A stretch of 64,000 bases of DNA from an uncultured Alphaproteobacteria bacterium (lineage in GTDB: Bacteria; Pseudomonadota; Alphaproteobacteria; RF32; CAG-239). Below the pieces are notes generated by a model. The model was not told the DNA's origin, made no database searches, and saw nothing but the letters and a program-made list of their open reading frames with translations. This document shows positions 44,522-52,912 of the stretch, one piece after another. The DNA lies in assembly GCA_944392275.1 (NCBI GenBank), contig CALXWA010000001.1, forward strand, positions 4,737-68,736. Direction: 5' to 3'. How positions within the stretch are numbered: position 1 is the first letter of the stretch; each line of letters begins with the position of its first letter. A program made the translations under genes and the position numbers.

Positions 44522-45088
44522 ATGACAAAAATGTATCCAAGCGGTGAAAATTGTGCAAATAGAACCGTTGATGAAAGCTTAAAGAAAGGTTGGGAAAAAG
44601 TCGAGCAAAAGGTTGGACGAGTAGTTGCATCCGCCGGCTTAACTGCAGGTGGATTAAAAGTTACGGAGCTTGGGTTTCGTTTAAATGAAAGTATGGTCAA
44701 TTTAGGCAATCATGCGGCCGATGTTGCAGACAAAGTTTTGGGAGGAGCCGGTGCTATCACAGGGCTTGGAATAAGCGGTGTCGGAGTAGCCATGACCGGA
44801 GCCGGAGTTTATCTGGGATATCGTTTAGCCAAAGACCATCGTTTGAAAGAAAAGTTTGTTAAAGCCTATAAGAACTCATCGACAAAAATTAAGACAAAGG
44901 TAACTCCTTTTGTTGCTAAAGCCAAAAAGACAATTGAAGAGTATCGAGAAGGTGTGGATATTACGGATGCCAAAGGGCGTTATACGGCAACATATGTCGG
45001 AAACGGAAAATATGTTGAACAACCGCTCAAAAAATTAAATAGTAATATAAAACAAATGTGGCAAAAATTGAAAGGGAATGTTCGTTAA
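44522..45088 (+). CDS. Hypothetical protein with a glycine-zipper membrane segment
   Basis: GGAGAITGLGISGVGVAMTGAGVYLG glycine-zipper helix. Translationally coupled to the next ORF (TAA then ATG, 0-nt gap). Confidence 0.4.
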   Translation: MTKMYPSGENCANRTVDESLKKGWEKVEQKVGRVVASAGLTAGGLKVTELGFRLNESMVNLGNHAADVADKVLGGAGAITGLGISGVGVAMTGAGVYLGYRLAKDHRLKEKFVKAYKNSSTKIKTKVTPFVAKAKKTIEEYREGVDITDAKGRYTATYVGNGKYVEQPLKKLNSNIKQMWQKLKGNVR

Positions 45089-46708: not shown

Positions 46709-47257
46709 TTATCTCAAACGATGTTCCCAAAGCTCATCAAAAAGCTTGCTCCCGGATTTATCCATCCACTCAAACAAAACCATTTCTCTTGAGACAACAT
46801 CAATCCCATGTTGTATAAGCCGCTGAATCCCCAATGAGTTCTGATAACTGCTACGGGAAGAACAGCTGTCAGCTACAACAAACACCTCATATCCAGCATC
46901 ATGAAAATCAATAGCAGTTTGCAAAACGCACAAATGAGTTTCCAACCCGGCAATAACAAGTTGTTTTTTGCCGATTTTCTTTACGGCATCGCGGATTTTT
47001 TTATTTTTATAACAAGAAAAAGTATCTTTCTCATAATAGCAGGTATCTTTTTTCAAAACCTTACGCAAATCAATCATGGTTGAGCCAAAGACTTTGTGAT
47101 CTTGCTCGGCAATAATATACGGAATATTAAGTTCTCCGGCAACTTCCAACAAGGTAGAACAACCGTTTATCACACCGCGAGGGCTTTCTTGTACTGGGGT
47201 TAAATTTTCCTGAACATCAATAATCAAAAGAAGGGAATCTTTTTTATTTATGAGCAT
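46709..47257 (-). CDS. Isochorismatase-family cysteine hydrolase
   Basis: LLLIIDVQENL..., C-terminal catalytic-Cys region VVADSCSSRS. 182 aa. Confidence 0.65.
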   Translation of the reverse strand: MLINKKDSLLLIIDVQENLTPVQESPRGVINGCSTLLEVAGELNIPYIIAEQDHKVFGSTMIDLRKVLKKDTCYYEKDTFSCYKNKKIRDAVKKIGKKQLVIAGLETHLCVLQTAIDFHDAGYEVFVVADSCSSRSSYQNSLGIQRLIQHGIDVVSREMVLFEWMDKSGSKLFDELWEHRLR

Positions 47258-47423
47258 GGCCGCCTCCGTAAAATAAGAATAGATAAAAATAGGCTAAAAC
47301 CAAAATCTAAAAACAATATTAAAAAAATCAAAAATTTCATAAAATTTTTTATAAGGAGATTATTTCGCAACAGAAATCTTAAAAAAAGTCCGACAACTGT
47401 ATAAAACAGATGTCGGACCATTT

Positions 47424-47813
47424 TTAGCTGAAGAGTGCCTCGACGGCCTCATCAAAGTTCATAGGGTTAGGATTGTATCCCTTATACCAAGAACTTTTCT
47501 TTTCCCAGATATAAAGTTCTCGAGCATTTTCAGCTAAAGAACAATATTCAGAAGGATAAACCTCGCCGCCAAAAGCTTCTTGTAAAGCCTCAGCATGTTC
47601 TTTGCTACCTGCAAAGTACTGTCCGTCTAAGGATAAAAGCTCAAACTCTAATCCATAACGTTGCCCTAAGTGGTAAACAACATCACGAAGAACACATGCT
47701 CCCCCATAAAGAGAGAAAAAGACCTTTCCAATGTTTTTTACAAAACCATCAGGATTAACAGAAGATAACAGTTCTTTACGAATAGCATCGATTTTTTGTT
47801 TTTTTGTTTCCAT
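47424..47813 (-). CDS. Hypothetical protein
   Basis: 129-aa ORF with no recognisable motif. Confidence 0.35.
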   Translation of the reverse strand: METKKQKIDAIRKELLSSVNPDGFVKNIGKVFFSLYGGACVLRDVVYHLGQRYGLEFELLSLDGQYFAGSKEHAEALQEAFGGEVYPSEYCSLAENARELYIWEKKSSWYKGYNPNPMNFDEAVEALFS

Positions 47814-48039: not shown

Positions 48040-48312
48040 TTAATTAACGGCTGTCTTGACGTAAGAGATATTTTTACGAACATTCATCGCATTAATTTCC
48101 TCGGAATTTCCGCGTTTAATTAAAGCCATTTCTGCTTCTTGATAAAGCAAATACTTATCAAGATAAGCCATAATTTCCTCATGGTGTCCTCGTTTAATTA
48201 AAGCCATTTCCGCTTCGGTATTAAGCAAATACTTATTAATATAAGCCATAATTTCTTCGTGGTTTCCACGAAGAATCATATCCATTTCTTGATTTGATCC
48301 TATTTTTTCCAT
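48040..48312 (-). CDS. Small protein made of three ~24-aa tandem repeats
   Basis: (E)AEMALIKRG(H/N)(H/S)EEI(M/N)AY(L/I)(D/N)KYLL repeated three times; the repeats are also visible in the DNA. Confidence 0.35.
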   Translation of the reverse strand: MEKIGSNQEMDMILRGNHEEIMAYINKYLLNTEAEMALIKRGHHEEIMAYLDKYLLYQEAEMALIKRGNSEEINAMNVRKNISYVKTAVN

Positions 48313-48482
48313 AATAATTAAATATTTAAATAATAAAATTTCCTAAAATAATTAAAATCAAAAGCAATTATAGCATAAAAATCTAAAATCACAACGCTTT
48401 TGTATAAATTGGACAAAAATTGTTATTCCTCAAATTCTTTGACAGAAGTCGGACCATTTTTTTTAGAGTTGTATTGGCACGA

Positions 48483-48625
48483 AAAAAAAGACCACCTTTT
48501 TGCACAAAGGTGGTCGGAGAGTTCGTAAATCACATTTCGCAAAATGATTCTCTTAGTCTTTAAAATCAAAAGATTTCTATTGTATACACTAAAAGCTCCC
48601 CGACCATAATCAGGGATATATTTAT
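48483..48625 (-). ncRNA. Candidate small RNA, copy A (conserved 5' block, variable middle, terminator hairpin)
   Basis: Minus-strand reading: GATTATGGTCGGGGAGCTTTT, then ~58 variable nt, then TGATTTACGAACTCTCCGACCACCTTTGTGCAAAAAGGTGGTC plus a T-run. A second copy lies at 51806..51940. Confidence 0.35.
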
Positions 48626-48853
48626 TGCCTTTTCGACTAAGGCAAATAACGGCATTATGATGATATGAGCTAATGAAAGTCCCTGCCACTCTCGTGATAC
48701 TAAACGCAGGCTTTTAACCCACGCCTATCTTCCAATATAAATGATTTTTCTTAAAATGAAATCAAGATGTTTATTGAAGCCAATGCAAGTAGGACAATTA
48801 AAATTCAATTGTAAAAAAATGTTTTATCTTTACTCAAATACACCATTAAAAAA

Positions 48854-51718
48854 TTAATTACTCTGAGAGTTTGACTGGCTGAATATTTTTCGTTGTATAA
48901 AAGACAACTTGCTTGGAGAAAAAGAAGCTTTTGCTCGAGGTTTTTCTTTGGTACTAATTCTTCCTTGTTTTTCCATAATCAGATTTTGTAATTTTTGAAC
49001 TTCTTCTTTTGAAAGTTTTTTATTAGTAGGCGTTCTTAAAGTAACAGTCTTTTTCTCGTGTTCGTCAGATTGTTCGGTTTGAGCCGATTGTTTATTTTTC
49101 GTGACAACCTCATTAATATCCTTTGCCGCCAAACCGACATCTATGGCGGTACTGACACCTGTTCCTACTCCGGGAAAACATCCTGCCACACCGGAAAGAA
49201 CTTCGCCGCAAGCACCTTTCCAATCGCCCTTTTTTATTCGATTAAAAGCAAAATAGCATCCGGCCGCGGCACTCAGAATTGGAATTTTTTTCAAAACAGA
49301 CTTACCGACAGCACTTCCGGCTGTTTTTGCAACAGTTTTAGTCACGGCCTTCCCGATAGCGGTTTGAGCAGCTTTTCCCGCCACTTTAGCCGTCGTCTTT
49401 TCAATAGCTTTAACGACTTTTGTATCTGCAACTTTTTCAGCTGCTTTCATATAGACTTTTCCGGCAGTTGTAGTATTTAGAACCTTACTGCCTTTTTCAA
49501 CGGTTTGTTCTATTGCCGTATTAATTACATTATCCGCTTTTGCAATACCGGACACTATTCCTTGTGCAGAATTTACACCGACATGAACTGCCGTTTTTGT
49601 TGCGGCTTTTTCGCTAACTTCAGCAACAGCTTGCCCGCATGAAAGAAGCTTTTCTTTCTTTTGGGCAAGGAAGTCAGGATCTCTGACTTGATGAATGATT
49701 CCTTTGTTTAATTCTTCCTTTTGTTTTTGTAATCGGGCATAAATATCTGGAGCGTTTCGATAAGTATCTTTCATATCAGCTTGCCGCGAACTAAGAATAT
49801 GTTTGGTTAATTTATCAGGATTCTCCGGGACAGGTATGTAAACATCTTTATAATGCATATCGTCTAATTCATAAGAAATATGCATTATTTTTGCTTTTAA
49901 CGGATTTTTTTCGGGGGTAACAAAAGTTTCGGCATCTGTTCTTTTAATATCATACTTTGATCCGTCAGTCAAAATATTCGAACCTGCTAAATAGCCGTTT
50001 AGTGCTTCTTCTTTTGTAATCATACGATCATTGGGAAAATTTCGAGAGCAGTCCTCCAATCCAAAATTTTTGAAAAATTTATCATCGGGACTTTGCTCAT
50101 AAATATTTATAAAACCAACACGGACATCCTTAACACCGTCAAACTTGCCAACCGACGAAGAAACATAAAAATCATTTGTTGCTGATTTTCCGTTTGGTAA
50201 TGATGCTCCATCATATACTGATGCATATTTTAAATGAGGTGTTGCATAAACCATTCCTGTTCGTCCCGGACGCTGACTAAACTGACAGAAATCATCAGAA
50301 GCGATACTTCCGGAAAACAAGTACTTATCTTTGGGATATTGGTGCGATAACTCATCAAGAGAATTGTATGATTTTGGAAGCTCATCAACAGAAGAAATTT
50401 CTAAACGCTGTAAAATAGCTTGTTGCTTTTCTTCCGGTATTGATAGTCCACTTTTGATTCTTTCTTTATATGCTTCGGCCAGATAGAGTTTACCTAATTC
50501 ATTGTTAATGACATCTTGAGGTAAACGTTCTCTTATTATATCTTTTAATAATTCTTTTGGTTTTATCGGAACAACGATACCTTGAGTAATATCAGCTTGA
50601 GCAAGATCATCAATCAGTTTGGGCATAATTTCTTTGGCTTCTTTGACGGTCATTGTGGGAGAAAAGACCTCAAATTTGAAGCTATCTGAAGTATAGCTCA
50701 TATCTTTATGCAGCAACCATTGATTTGTATCATCGCCAATTGATAAACCATTATATGCAAATATATTTTTAGCTGCATTACCGTCTTTTAAACGCAGATT
50801 AAACATGACAGTTTCATTGTCGGCCATATTATCAAGCCCTTCTATATAGTTAGAAACATTGTATGTCTTAGGGTTTTTTATGTCATTTTGTATCTCTTTT
50901 GCAAGAATTCTGATATTTTTATCTTCTTGTATATTAAAGTTACTGTTTTGAAAGTTAGTTTTAATATTTTCAATAGTCTGCACTTGAGTTTGAATATCTT
51001 TTTGTTGGTTGGATATTGTATTTTGCAAATTTTTATTTGATTCTAGATACTCTTGTGAAGCGGTTTCAATCTTTTTTTTATCTCGTTCGCCAATGGAATA
51101 AAACTTAGATTTAAGGGGATCGAAACAATTTTCTTTAGGAAGGTTATCAAGCTGTTCTTTTAAGTTATTTTCTTGATATTTTTCGAGAAAAACATTTAAC
51201 TGTTGATTAGCCTCTTCTATTTTTTTGCTGTTCCTTATTCGGTTAAGAAGGCCTTGCGGCTTTTGAGTTAAGGCATTAAAATAATATTTCTTATTTTCTG
51301 TGATGAACTTTCCTGTTTCAGTATAATTTGATAATAATTTTTTTAAGTGTTCCTGCCGTTCAGGAGGATATTTTGCAATCAGATCCTCTATATCTTTTTC
51401 AAAGCCATTCAATTTTTCATTAAAATCGGCAAATGCAGACTGATTTTGCTGCAAACTTAAAACTTTTTCAGATAATGCATTTAGCTTAGCATAACGAGAG
51501 GAAAGAACGTCTTTATAAAATTCGTCAGTAATTTTTTTATTTTTTTCCGTAATAAATTTTTCAATATCGCCATTGGTTTCAATTTGTTCAAGAAGATCTG
51601 AAGCCCAAGGCATTTTCCAAATCTCACTTTTATCAGTAAAAAGTCGGCCTTTTTCTTGAAACCAAAAAGGAACGACTAATGCATTGTCCAAATTTTCCCA
51701 ATAATCAGCATCACGCAT
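48854..51718 (-). CDS. Giant Asn/Lys-rich hypothetical protein (coiled-coil N-terminal half; glycine-zipper-like C-terminal segment)
   Basis: 954-aa ORF in a region much more AT-rich than its surroundings. C-terminal AAGCYFAFNRIKKGDWKGACGEVLSGVAGCFPGVGTGV. No recognisable enzyme motif. Confidence 0.5.
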   Translation of the reverse strand: MRDADYWENLDNALVVPFWFQEKGRLFTDKSEIWKMPWASDLLEQIETNGDIEKFITEKNKKITDEFYKDVLSSRYAKLNALSEKVLSLQQNQSAFADFNEKLNGFEKDIEDLIAKYPPERQEHLKKLLSNYTETGKFITENKKYYFNALTQKPQGLLNRIRNSKKIEEANQQLNVFLEKYQENNLKEQLDNLPKENCFDPLKSKFYSIGERDKKKIETASQEYLESNKNLQNTISNQQKDIQTQVQTIENIKTNFQNSNFNIQEDKNIRILAKEIQNDIKNPKTYNVSNYIEGLDNMADNETVMFNLRLKDGNAAKNIFAYNGLSIGDDTNQWLLHKDMSYTSDSFKFEVFSPTMTVKEAKEIMPKLIDDLAQADITQGIVVPIKPKELLKDIIRERLPQDVINNELGKLYLAEAYKERIKSGLSIPEEKQQAILQRLEISSVDELPKSYNSLDELSHQYPKDKYLFSGSIASDDFCQFSQRPGRTGMVYATPHLKYASVYDGASLPNGKSATNDFYVSSSVGKFDGVKDVRVGFINIYEQSPDDKFFKNFGLEDCSRNFPNDRMITKEEALNGYLAGSNILTDGSKYDIKRTDAETFVTPEKNPLKAKIMHISYELDDMHYKDVYIPVPENPDKLTKHILSSRQADMKDTYRNAPDIYARLQKQKEELNKGIIHQVRDPDFLAQKKEKLLSCGQAVAEVSEKAATKTAVHVGVNSAQGIVSGIAKADNVINTAIEQTVEKGSKVLNTTTAGKVYMKAAEKVADTKVVKAIEKTTAKVAGKAAQTAIGKAVTKTVAKTAGSAVGKSVLKKIPILSAAAGCYFAFNRIKKGDWKGACGEVLSGVAGCFPGVGTGVSTAIDVGLAAKDINEVVTKNKQSAQTEQSDEHEKKTVTLRTPTNKKLSKEEVQKLQNLIMEKQGRISTKEKPRAKASFSPSKLSFIQRKIFSQSNSQSN

Positions 51719-51805
51719 AATTCCTCTCCTGCTAAGGACAAAATATTCTATTTTACCTTATTTTACTATAAAAATTAAAAAGAGTAAACTAATTTAGAAG
51801 AAAAT

Positions 51806-51940
51806 AAAAAAAAACACCTTTTTGCACAAAGGTGGTCGGAGAGTTCGTAAATCATACAGCAAGTGATGACCTCTTGACCTTTAGGTAAAACCTTGGACAT
51901 ACGTCAAAAGCTCCCCGACCATAATCGGAGGCCTCATTAC
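51806..51940 (-). ncRNA. Candidate small RNA, copy B, with promoter-like hexamers
   Basis: Same conserved ends as copy A with a different middle. On the minus strand it is preceded by TTGAAT-N16-TACAAT (plus-strand coordinates 51947-51973). Ends in the hairpin ACCTTTGTGCAAAAAGGTG plus a T-run. Confidence 0.35.
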
Positions 51941-52003
51941 ACGCAAATTGTAACCCCAGTAAAAGAAAATTCAAGTGTTGTTTCCTCTTTTGCCAAAAAC
52001 GAT

Positions 52004-52040
52004 GATAAAAAAAAGCAGTCATTTTCATGACTGCCTTTTG
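52004..52040 (-). terminator. Intrinsic terminator downstream of tRNA-Glu
   Basis: Minus-strand GGCAGTCAT-GAAA-ATGACTGCC hairpin followed by TTTTTTTT. Confidence 0.6.
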
Positions 52041-52043
52041 TAT

Positions 52044-52119
52044 TGGTGATCCCAGCGGGAATCGAACCCGCGTTACCGCCGTGAGAGGGCGATGTCCTAG
52101 GCCGCTAGACGATGGGACC
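52044..52119 (-). tRNA. tRNA-Glu (anticodon CUC)
   Basis: Reverse complement GGTCCCATCGTCTAGCGGCCTAGGACATCGCCCTCTCACGGCGGTAACGCGGGTTCGATTCCCGCTGGGATCACCA. It aligns with bacterial tRNA-Glu and the anticodon loop CTCTCAC gives CUC. Confidence 0.8.
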
Positions 52120-52171
52120 CGTAAAACACTTGATTTAATAATCTATATTTTATTAACTTGCAAGCGTTTTT

Positions 52172-52711: not shown

Positions 52712-52883
52712 AAGAAACTTTCCTTATAATAAAGGCAAAAAAATTAAGGAATGGATAAAATTTAATCCCAAGAGAAAGGATTTTATTTTTTTTGAATTGA
52801 CTTTGTATCAAGTCGACAATTACAAAACAAAATAAAAAACATGTTTTTTTTGCCTAGAAAATGGATTTTTTTGTAATTCCGAC

Positions 52884-52912
52884 TTGACTCTCAAAGATTT
52901 TCCTTATATAAA
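52884..52912 (+). promoter_or_regulatory. Sigma-70-like promoter (TTGACT-N17-TATAAA) upstream of ffh, followed by a GC-rich structured leader
   Basis: Hexamers read from the sequence. The leader 52952-53010 holds the palindrome CACTCCAAGGAGTG and the stem CGCCAGT...ACTGGCG. Confidence 0.4.

Follow-up and report, generated by a model that had tools for sequence, protein, structure and literature searches.

Two related repeats, referred to here as copies A and B, lie on the minus strand of the window (the whole 64-kb stretch of DNA analyzed) on either side of a 954-aa ORF (Table 1). Copy B adjoins a tRNA-Glu gene, and copy A is followed by a 90-aa ORF on a 1,036-bp segment that is missing from some strains. 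The 954-aa protein has no Pfam match and belongs to an orphan family; among its 21 homologues, the sole informative source name is Alphaproteobacteria. An original prediction, made from the sequence, described two minus-strand copies with common end blocks and a terminator, which we located at 51926..51806 and 48611..48484. The 5' block GATTATGGTCGGGGAGCTTTT occurs exactly twice in the 64 kb, at 48591-48611 and 51906-51926 (0.01 expected by chance), as does the 3' block CTCTCCGACCACCTTTGTGCAAAAAGGTG, at 48493-48521 and 51815-51843 (0 expected). A repeat search aligned copy A with copy B over 28 nt at 89% and over 49 nt at 96%. The predicted Rho-independent terminators were recovered as terminator-like hairpins followed by T-runs (48515..48490 and 51834..51815), and the proposed end pairing of GGUCGGGGAG with CUCUCCGACC is present in the minimum-energy folds of both copies (-36.3 and -36.1 kcal/mol; z = -4.2 and -3.0). 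The middle had been read as differing completely between the copies. Instead, A and B form the same helices, with compensatory changes (the P2a helix is CUUUUAGU/ACUAAGAG in A and CUUUUGAC/GUCAAGAG in B) and a common internal loop, GUAU...AAAG.

Table 1. Features of the two repeat copies and their flanking genes in the window
Feature	Position	Strand	Basis and details
tRNA-Glu(CUC) and its terminator	52044..52119	-	Immediately upstream of copy B; marks a strain-variable hotspot
Copy B promoter-like site, TTGAAT-N16-TACAAT	51947..51974	-	Consensus scan; directly after the tRNA-Glu terminator
Copy B degenerate anti-P1 box, CCUCCGA	51925..51931	-	Sequence compared with the family box (consensus UCCCCGA)
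Copy B three-way junction (3WJ)	51834..51920	-	Fold; P1 51911-51920 with 51834-51843, P2a/P2b loop GUAUGUCCA/AAAG, P3, J3/1 UUACGAA
Copy B intrinsic terminator	51806..51834	-	Short stem CACCUUU/AAAGGUG and U9 tract; lacks the GGUC extension of copy A
954-aa ORF assigned to copy B control	48854..51718	-	SD AGGAGAGG; start codon 115 nt past the end of P1
Putative copy A promoter, TTGATT-N18-TTTATA, overlapping TATATT	48734..48765	-	Read from sequence at the family promoter position; exact TSS inferred
Copy A upstream module	48624..48728	-	Alignments; H1 ~48704-48724, H2/H3/H4 ~48653-48702, H5 UUGCCUU...AAGGCAA 48625-48645
Copy A conserved box AAAUAUAUCCCUGAU	48609..48623	-	UCCCUGA (48610-48616) can pair with the P1 5' strand (anti-P1)
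Copy A 3WJ	48512..48605	-	Fold; P1 48596-48605 with 48512-48521, P2a/P2b loop GUAUACAAU/AAAG, P3, J3/1 UUACGAA
Copy A intrinsic terminator	48482..48515	-	10-bp stem GACCACCUUU/AAAGGUGGUC and U8 tract
90-aa ORF downstream of copy A	48040..48312	-	Internal 26-aa repeats

The element is not confined to two copies, as first supposed. We found 124 distinct cores in public data, namely in gut and rumen alphaproteobacterial MAGs, in human-gut metagenomes and in four phage-like (viral) contigs. Loci from low-GC alphaproteobacterial MAGs account for 72 distinct cores, along with copies that have a variant P1 and tandem arrays. When metagenome loci were selected solely by an upstream hairpin, H4, the junction was present ~60-70 nt downstream in 99 of 100 loci and then in 20 of 20. 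At the gathering score, the only Rfam 15 matches across the window and 18 loci were tRNAs. With permissive settings, the window locus and one canonical full leader gave nothing above noise (PyrR, 25 bits where the gathering score is 54; isrD, 19 against 37; SNORA5, 13 against 30). The family is an undescribed, widespread and probably cis-regulatory RNA that is absent from Rfam 15.

From 5' to 3', a canonical leader consists of a promoter, hairpins H1 to H5, a box (AAUAAAUAUAUCCCCGAU), a linker of 4-25 nt, the 3WJ, an intrinsic terminator, an SD and the gene. The 3WJ is built from P1 (GGUCGGGGAG/CUCUCCGACC), P2 (split into P2a and P2b) and P3. We estimate the length of the canonical leader at roughly 300 nt, of which the repeat element would be the 3' third. 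Canonical members are predicted to be transcribed from their own sigma70-type promoter, whose position in the family is ~170 nt upstream of the junction and whose -10 column is conserved in the alignment. According to this architecture, the promoter originally proposed for copy A (TTGCCT-N17-AATATA) is misplaced, since it falls within conserved leader sequence that is predicted to be transcribed, in hairpin H5 and the AAUAAAUAUAUCCC box. The one proposed for copy B (TTGAAT-N16-TACAAT, 51974..51947) is plausible by consensus scan, yet it is not conserved in the family.

The original prediction had named covariation across copies and relatives as a check, and P2a and P2b covary strongly. In a P1-unbiased alignment, 98% of cells are paired, compared with 31-51% in slid controls, and 10 pairs are doubly changed; the covarying pairs comprise all six of P2a and four of the five of P2b. 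An alignment of H2 to H4, whose covariation was also tested, is 96.5% paired with 10 doubly changed pairs. None of 500 shuffles reached the observed covariation values. P1 is 100% paired, each change in it keeps a wobble pair, and one G-U pair is invariant; as it has no double compensatory change, the case for a P1 helix comes from perfect complementarity and wobble-only variation. The conserved nucleotides of the 3WJ lie in the P2 internal loop and in J3/1, with P1 also conserved in sequence, and the P2b and P3 loops are variable, unpaired and the least conserved parts. Against the covariance model R1, copy A scores 86.6 bits (E = 2.5e-17) and copy B 79.2 bits (E = 1.1e-15), both copies being part of the seed alignment; the reverse strand scores far lower (22.8 versus 86.6 bits). 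Further upstream, the H4 loop GGAUAU can pair with AUAUCC of the box in canonical members, forming a pseudoknot whose variation is wobble-only. Compensated variants of this loop-box pairing were spotted by eye, uncounted, in loci L037 and L110.

Next to genes, the family has a consistent position. In 74 of 80 copies, a same-strand ORF starts a few dozen nucleotides past the terminator, which is followed by an SD and a start codon; the remaining six copies are at contig ends or before another leader copy. Genes upstream of the leader are of mixed orientation and separated from it by at least 149 nt. Single genes, rather than long operons, follow most leaders. The downstream genes encode surface proteins, LPS/capsule enzymes and restriction-modification or nuclease proteins; the products recognized were type IV pilin-like proteins and lipoproteins, autotransporters, Bor, OMP barrels, PMP repeats, GT2, Caps_synth, DegT, epimerase, RgpF, Acyl_transf_3, LicC/APH-like, SNase, Type ISP and EcoRI methylases, PDDEXK, PLD and SLOG. 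They have no common metabolic theme that would point to a ligand, and the gene set suggests no metabolite. A subgroup preceding LysR genes has no terminator at all. Overall, the leaders seem to control whether transcription proceeds into surface and other accessory genes in uncultured alphaproteobacteria of the gut.

The terminator and the junction share sequence: 97 of 105 scorable copies draw 3-4 nt of the terminator stem from the P1 3' strand, and the mean terminator dG is -10.6 with these P1 nucleotides and -3.2 without them. We found the anti-P1 box in 122 of 138 copies; its duplex with the P1 5' strand has an energy of -14.9 kcal/mol, compared with -7.7 kcal/mol for shuffled sequence. 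The OFF fold, with the box paired, is the more stable one in 64 of 73 non-redundant leaders, by a median of 6.7 kcal/mol, and in predicted folds the terminator pairs drop from 6.5 to 2.2 upon P1 closure; the energy model behind these values takes no account of pseudoknots, proteins or co-transcriptional kinetics. The leaders combine a 5' UTR position, a covariation-supported structured domain and an expression platform in which the sensor helix takes part in mutually exclusive structures, as in cis-regulatory attenuators. We consider it likely that each repeat is the terminator-proximal part of a structured 5' leader RNA, and that the RNAs of this family act in cis as transcription attenuators.

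Such an attenuator would operate through four competing segments: the UCCCCGA box (1), the P1 5' strand (2), the P1 3' strand (3) and the terminator 3' arm (4). In the proposed default state, 1:2 and 3:4 pairing would form the full terminator and leave the downstream gene silent. Pairing of 2 with 3, with P1 closed and the junction formed, would keep ACC/GACC from the terminator stem beside the U-tract and let RNA polymerase read through. Switching on would require the box to be removed or outcompeted, and the trigger might be a ligand or protein that acts either on the junction or on the pseudoknotted domain upstream of it (H4 loop GGAUAU:AUAUCC). As the overlap between P1 and the terminator is just 3-4 nt, both could coexist with a shortened P1.

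The two copies in the window differ in this regard. Copy A, which precedes the 90-aa ORF, is a full leader that has partly degenerated: its H2-H4 region is degenerate, the outer 4 bp of its terminator take GACC from the P1 3' strand, and its OFF fold is the more stable one (-72.0 versus -63.8 kcal/mol for ON). Its putative promoter region is ~93% identical to the promoter/H1 region of a single leader in a sister lineage (contig L256). Copy B is without the upstream module of the family, and with its weaker box the closed P1 is the minimum-energy fold (ON, -37.1 kcal/mol; OFF, -34.9 kcal/mol). It is a 5'-truncated and probably de-repressed derivative of the leader; given its own predicted promoter, weak box and shortened terminator, the 954-aa gene is probably expressed largely constitutively.

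The order of A, the 954-aa gene and B is circularly permuted relative to the one leader-gene unit of L256; the leader there corresponds to copy A at the 5' end and to copy B in the 3' flank. The permutation indicates that leader copies have recombined, and the flanking arrangement in the window is a product of recombination between them. In addition, the linker and terminator-loop sequences, which vary across the family, are the same in A and B, suggesting gene conversion. Ordinary homologous recombination between dispersed repeats explains the permutation. These same features could be expected of a selfish or recombinational DNA element (a MITE, an RPE-like palindromic repeat or an att/attC-like site), which would be recognized at its inverted ends at the DNA level and shuffle gene cassettes, with the RNA fold incidental: inverted repeats enclose a variable centre, a single gene is flanked by the copies at a strain-variable hotspot next to a tRNA gene, and tandem arrays occur. 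Yet the copies have a strongly biased orientation to the downstream gene and a fixed place between promoter and SD, nearly all of them carry a U-tract terminator, and the structure is strand-specific, as seen in the invariant G-U pair and the reverse-strand score. None of 155 leaders has both attC core sites (R'' RYYYAAC and R' GTTRRRY), and no integrase or recombinase gene was called by Pfam match within ~10 kb, which bears out the original view that this is not an att duplication. With position and orientation fixed and no target-site duplication noticed in an informal reading of the flanks, the repeats are neither IS ends nor MITE ends, and the many copies retain a conserved, covarying structure. 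A DNA element is thus very unlikely. Nor is ribosome-mediated attenuation any easier to support, although an AUG in the loop GUAUGUUCA lies ~10 nt after GGGGAG of the P1 5' strand in 113 of 124 distinct cores, so that GGGGAG could serve as an SD and translation of a leader peptide could decide the fate of the terminator. The resulting ORFs span 2-76 codons with scattered stops and no conserved peptide across the 124 cores, and 11 cores, copy A among them, have no such AUG. P2b indels are not multiples of three, substitutions track base-pair covariation rather than codons, and the SD would be buried in either alternative helix. We regard this reading as highly improbable.

The original interpretation, a small-RNA family with copy-specific targeting loops, was right about a structured minus-strand RNA, its conserved scaffold, its closing helix and its intrinsic terminator; the stand-alone sRNA gene is what fails, since the repeats form the 3' module of a longer leader that in most copies runs directly into a gene. 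As a trans-acting family, each copy would be an independent gene giving a terminated transcript of ~120-300 nt that pairs with targets through its variable loops. Consistent with this, the default fold is the terminated one, which means that strong promoters would yield mostly short terminated transcripts, and the P2b and P3 loops are variable and unpaired. Moreover, locus L105 has four complete tandem promoter-leader-terminator units, three of which lead into another leader rather than a gene, an arrangement that is hard to explain by pure cis control. Against it, sRNA seeds are normally the most conserved part of the molecule, whereas the loops are the least conserved here, and the variable middle consists of covarying helices with free peripheral loops; a conserved single-stranded seed and a stand-alone position, as in Hfq/ProQ-type sRNAs, are both absent. 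Target prediction from the middle gave no preference for the own downstream mRNA (-20.5 kcal/mol, compared with -20.6 for the mRNAs of other leaders; p = 0.43). The conserved P1-terminator overlap and the anti-P1 box would have no role in a pure trans model, and there is no likeness to any Rfam sRNA. A trans-acting family is therefore unlikely, though the terminated transcripts may have a secondary role in trans. Another scenario is an unregulated processive-antitermination or protective leader (HK022 put RNA, EAR, or loading of a NusG paralogue such as RfaH, UpxY or LoaP), in which polymerase is let through horizontally acquired surface genes and the terminator is merely a checkpoint. The gene set (LPS, capsule, adhesins, pili and mobile-element genes) resembles established RfaH/UpxY regulons, the leader moves along with accessory genes and is also present in phage-like contigs, and H4 (CGGUGUUAGG) is loosely ops-like at best. 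Yet the ops element GGCGGTAGnnTG, expected in the transcribed leader of RfaH-dependent JUMPStart systems, is absent from all 155 leaders and from the window. No NusG-like gene was found among the scanned downstream genes, and no NusG/RfaH-like ORF in the window, although the latter is uninformative for the whole genome. The prevalence of single genes over long operons also argues against it, and the conserved, mutually exclusive pairings suit a structural switch better; we consider unregulated antitermination quite unlikely.

Among known systems, the proposed attenuator is close in layout to transcriptional ON riboswitches with a 3WJ, such as the pbuE/ydhL adenine riboswitch of the purine class. 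Both have a P1-closed three-helix junction in the 5' UTR with covarying peripheral helices and a conserved core loop, and a P1 3' strand common to the intrinsic terminator, such that closed P1 would favour read-through. The leader has no sequence or model similarity to the purine riboswitch and no Rfam match. It also differs in that its conserved nucleotides lie in the P2 internal loop and J3/1 rather than in a purine-type junction with kissing loops, P1 is sequence-conserved, there are an extra 5' anti-P1 box and a ~170-nt upstream domain, the terminator overlap is just 3-4 nt, and the gene set lacks a metabolic theme. The logic of 1:2 and 3:4 termination versus 2:3 antitermination, with termination the thermodynamic default, resembles the trp/his and PyrR/TRAP attenuators. 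The present leaders have no conserved leader peptide, and their segments 2 and 3 are parted by two covarying hairpins that form the junction; the match to the PyrR model is at noise level, as noted above.

Other resemblances concern genomic distribution. The c-di-GMP-I (GEMM-I) riboswitch has many copies per genome before adhesin, pilus, exopolysaccharide and unknown genes and is present in phage genomes, a multi-copy, surface-gene and phage-contig pattern shared by our family, although the two differ entirely in architecture and no Rfam model matches. RfaH/ops (JUMPStart) in enterobacteria and UpxY for Bacteroides capsules act on long 5' leaders of LPS, capsule, adhesin and horizontally acquired operons whose expression needs termination to be overcome, either within the leader or past it. 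The present leaders are likewise long, precede surface or acquired genes and would have termination to overcome; they differ in being covarying structured RNAs with a dedicated intrinsic terminator directly before the start codon, with ops absent and no NusG paralogue beside the leaders examined. Bartonella Brt RNAs are ~200 nt, multi-copy and alphaproteobacterial, with a terminator directly upstream of trp regulator genes; they are genus-specific, and all precede one family of small HTH regulators. Our family is also an alphaproteobacterial multi-copy, structured, leader-like RNA with a terminator upstream of a gene, yet its sequence is unrelated and it precedes dozens of unrelated surface and accessory genes.

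To our knowledge, nothing is known about gene regulation in the uncultured, presumably RF32-like gut and rumen alphaproteobacteria of this group. With the leader as a marker, a regulon can be recognized from sequence alone, comprising autotransporters, pilins, lipoproteins, OMPs, LPS/capsule enzymes and restriction-modification or nuclease genes that are apparently off by default. As a large covariation-supported family missing from Rfam, it is useful for annotation and as an orphan riboswitch or attenuator candidate. It is possible, though rather unlikely, that it represents a new riboswitch-like sensor class, in which a small molecule (a second messenger or a host- or diet-derived signal) bound by the upstream pseudoknotted domain, the 3WJ or both would switch on a surface-antigen, pilus, LPS-capsule and defence regulon. 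If so, the portable leader would be a means of placing newly acquired accessory genes under one signal. Regulatory leaders that move with accessory genes and recombine with one another are one route for acquired genes into host control. Across 14 strains, a leader is without indels while the downstream passenger domain diverges to 61%, which is consistent with selection on the leader.

Two minus-strand copies of the element, copy A and copy B, are present in the window, as the original prediction held. They share a 21-nt 5′ block and a 29-nt 3′ block, each found exactly twice in 64 kb (expected 0.01 and 0), and both end in a terminator-like hairpin followed by a T-run; a repeat search of the window aligned 28 nt at 89% and 49 nt at 96% between them. 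Copies A and B fold alike as a three-way junction of helices P1 (GGUCGGGGAG/CUCUCCGACC), P2, and P3 (z = −4.2 and −3.0). The middles had been described as completely different, yet the changes in P2a are compensatory (AGU/ACU in A and GAC/GUC in B), and the internal loop GUAU...AAAG is kept in both. Copies A and B share the same linker (GAUUAU), joining segment J3/1, and terminator loop (GUGCAA), although all three vary across the family, which points to either recent gene conversion or common ancestry of the ends.

To define the family, we scanned species-representative genomes for GGTCGGGGAG-N50-80-CTCTCCGACC, which returned at least 118 stretches. After chance matches in high-GC phyla were discarded, at least 72 distinct cores were left, all from low-GC loci. 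Nearly all of these carry the labels of uncultured alphaproteobacterial (or proteobacterial) MAGs from gut or rumen, among them Proteobacteria bacterium CAG:495, uncultured Rickettsiales UMGS1453, and the RUG and RGIG rumen bins. On the fetched loci, a covariance model trained on these distinct cores (R1) recovered additional copies with variant P1 helices, as well as tandem arrays, and genuine copies lie on four IMG/VR contigs. In the window, R1 matches only copies A and B; a third candidate, upstream of a NUDIX gene (15 bits), was rejected as an AT-rich imperfect palindrome (AGUCGGAAUUAC...GUAAUUGUCGACU) without the conserved loops of the family. Neither the window, 18 loci, nor one canonical full leader matched Rfam at the gathering score or in permissive mode, and nothing relevant emerged from the literature, whether searched by sequence string or by topic. 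Taken together, the comparison indicates that the element belongs to a new and widespread family of structured, putatively attenuating leaders located before surface and accessory genes. Typical leaders also occur on two contigs with the record labels Bacteroidaceae and Holdemanella biformis (L025 and L060); judging from their content, these are probably mis-binned alphaproteobacterial contigs. At two loci, complete promoter-leader-terminator units are repeated in tandem before a single gene, an arrangement that pure cis control does not explain.

The element as first reported is only the 3′ third of this leader; conservation extends about 170 nt upstream of the junction, to a −10 box; the promoter originally proposed for copy A falls within conserved leader sequence. 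Upstream of the junction, the full leader consists of a sigma70-like promoter, a variable H1, the hairpins H2 (GUACC/GGUAC), H3 (GGAGC/GCUCU), and H4 (CGGUGUU-AGGAUAU-AACAUCG), a variable H5, a box (AAUAAAUAUAUCCCCGAU) able to pair with the 5′ strand of P1, and a linker of 4 to 25 nt. A metagenome scan with the H4 sequence alone, with no constraint on the junction, returned at least 120 stretches, many of them labelled human gut metagenome. Among the matches listed, the junction lay about 60 to 70 nt downstream of H4 at 99 of 100 and then at 20 of 20 loci. In the P1-unbiased set, 98% of the cells are paired versus 31 to 51% in slid controls; ten pairs show double changes, with covariation at all six pairs of P2a and four of the five of P2b, while P1 is 100% paired, its sole changes keeping a wobble pair. 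For H2 to H4, pairing reaches 96.5%, and 10 pairs are doubly changed. The H4 loop (GGAUAU) could also pair with AUAUCC in the box in 98% of cells, showing wobble-type variation only.

Positions of the features discussed (window coordinates unless a contig is named)
Feature	Position	Strand	Remark
Copy A	48611..48484	-	
Copy A, promoter-like site	~48734-48765	-	
Copy A, box	48609-48623	-	
Copy A, junction	48512-48605	-	
Copy B	51926..51806	-	
Rejected third copy	52811-52884	-	upstream of NUDIX gene
954-aa ORF	48854-51718	-	follows copy B
188-aa ORF	44522-45088		
90-aa ORF	48040-48312		follows copy A
78-nt tandem repeats	48093-48248		within 90-aa ORF
1,036-bp segment	47426-48441		
Direct repeats	47406-47425 and 48442-48461		ACAGAWGTCGGACCATTTTT
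24-nt inverted repeat	47185-47208 / 51945-51968		
Extra genes in L002	L002:8167-9668		versus window 52005-52142
Tandem leaders, L105	L105:6174-7242		four units, period ~328 nt
Tandem leaders, L022	L022:2625-3015		two units

The two copies had been read as small RNAs with copy-specific targeting loops, an interpretation that is correct only in part. A structured element with a terminator stands; its position argues for a cis leader rather than a trans-acting RNA, because 74 of 80 copies are closely followed by the start of a same-strand ORF of 70 aa or more, and the remaining six lie at contig ends or next to a further leader downstream. The ORF is preceded by an SD and typically starts 35 to 60 nt from the end of P1; upstream neighbours are at least 149 nt away and, in about one-third of cases, on the opposite strand. 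No copy-specific pairing was found between a variable middle and its own mRNA. Sequestration of the SD by the P1 3′ strand was also considered as the main platform: complementarity of at least 6 nt is enriched (20% of copies versus 8% of control genes; p = 5e-4) but is confined to a minority of copies, so it is better regarded as an auxiliary feature.

Other readings of the leader were likewise set aside. Control by a leader peptide had no support and was rejected. The ends GGUCGGGG...CCGACCACC might suggest a tmRNA- or tRNA-like molecule; ARAGORN finds only three tRNAs. An invertible promoter would leave inversions, and none were seen in groups of up to 18 near-identical strain contigs, nor in the conspecific contigs L001 to L006. 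Phase variation at homopolymers was rejected as well: one leader shows no indels across 14 strains, and another differs by a single T indel in two of eight. The ops and attC motifs are absent from the leaders, and no homologues of NusG, RfaH, CsrA, Hfq, or ProQ were found among the ORFs of the 64-kb window, a stretch too short for this result to be informative.

The pairings available to the leader suggest how it may act. In 97 of 105 scorable copies, the terminator stem draws on the P1 3′ strand for its final 3 to 4 nt (ACC or GACC), and the mean stability of the stem is −10.6 kcal/mol with these nucleotides and −3.2 kcal/mol without them. A UCCCCGA box (at most one mismatch, within 45 nt upstream of P1) is present in 122 of 138 copies, and its duplex with the P1 5′ strand reaches −14.9 kcal/mol versus −7.7 kcal/mol for shuffled sequence. 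By constrained folding of 73 non-redundant leaders, the OFF fold, in which the box pairs with the P1 5′ strand and the terminator is full, beats closed P1 in 64 (median, 6.7 kcal/mol); upon P1 closure, terminator pairs fall from 6.5 to 2.2. From these mutually exclusive pairings and the stability of the OFF fold, we infer a four-segment attenuator whose default would be termination; all that is said here on transcription, the direction of the switch, and its trigger is drawn from sequence. Expression would then depend on some input, either releasing the P1 5′ strand or stabilising the junction. Copy A is a complete leader, with H1 to H5 and a 10-bp terminator, and, like the family as a whole, favours the OFF fold (−72.0 versus −63.8 kcal/mol). 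Copy B is reduced to a degenerate box (CCUCCGA), the junction, and a shortened terminator, and its predicted promoter is a different one that adjoins the tRNA-Glu terminator. For copy B, closed P1 is the minimum-energy fold (−37.1 versus −34.9 kcal/mol), so this copy is probably largely de-repressed.

The downstream genes fall into three groups. The surface group includes autotransporters, OMP beta-barrels and Opacity-like proteins, Bor lipoprotein, PMP-repeat and type IV pilin-like proteins, and lipoproteins; the polysaccharide group, family-2 glycosyltransferases, capsule-synthesis proteins, DegT aminotransferase, an epimerase, RgpF, an O-acyltransferase, and a LicC/APH-like enzyme; and the mobile-element and defence group, SNase, PDDEXK and PLD nucleases, Type ISP and EcoRI-type methyltransferases, and an SLOG protein. 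One autotransporter with an identical leader keeps its signal peptide between strains, while its passenger domain has diverged to 61%. In a separate subgroup (L027, L041, L051, L065, L103, and L113), the junction lacks both terminator and H4 hairpin and immediately precedes the SD and start of a conserved LysR-type regulator; the variant may be translational, or the LysR protein may itself control the regulon.

The 954-aa protein encoded after copy B belongs to an orphan family of 21 homologues, with Alphaproteobacteria the one informative source name, and has no Pfam match. It lacks a signal peptide and has a Gly/Ala-rich amphipathic or hydrophobic C-terminal end; a Gly-rich hydrophobic stretch like it occurs in the nearby, also unannotated, 188-aa protein. 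Both could be membrane-inserting effectors or toxins. No leader was found at orthologues of 35 to 49% identity, even when search filters were turned off, indicating that the association is lineage specific. An 86% orthologue on another contig (L256) lies in a different neighbourhood, where a single full leader precedes the gene and none follows it. In its terminator and 5′ UTR, this leader is almost the same as copy B; in its promoter and H1, it matches the sequence preceding copy A at about 93% identity. In L256, the order runs promoter, upstream module, junction, terminator, and gene; in the window, it runs junction B, terminator, gene, promoter, upstream module, junction A, and terminator, and the latter is a circular permutation of the former. 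The simplest explanation is leader-leader recombination, through either a circle that was excised and reintegrated or tandem duplication with subsequent deletions. A 24-nt inverted repeat (21 of 24 matching; two observed versus 0.03 in shuffled sequence) links the copy B promoter to the first codons of an isochorismatase ORF 4.7 kb away; it is found in conspecific contigs and absent from L256, and extends no further.

The surrounding genes (a CtrA-like response regulator, FliI/FliJ, Ffh, S16, RimM, TrmD, and L19) point to a low-GC alphaproteobacterium as the source of the window. One metagenome contig (ERZ24773240 NODE_973) shows full identity to the window across the 12 kb that were compared. 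Conspecific contigs vary at the locus: L002 and L006 precisely lack a 1,036-bp segment that carries the 90-aa and 129-aa ORFs. This segment is flanked by 20-nt direct repeats, and the indel polymorphism starts about 20 to 40 nt downstream of the copy A terminator. The 90-aa ORF matches no Pfam family above its cut-off and contains two tandem 78-nt (26-aa) repeats of 83% identity (EAEMALIKRG-HEEIMAY--KYLL). Copy B is closely preceded by a tRNA-Glu gene, and between the two, L002 has an extra MarR-family regulator and a nitroreductase; the tRNA 3′ end/terminator region is found on both flanks of this insert (92% identity), as expected of an island integrated at a tRNA.
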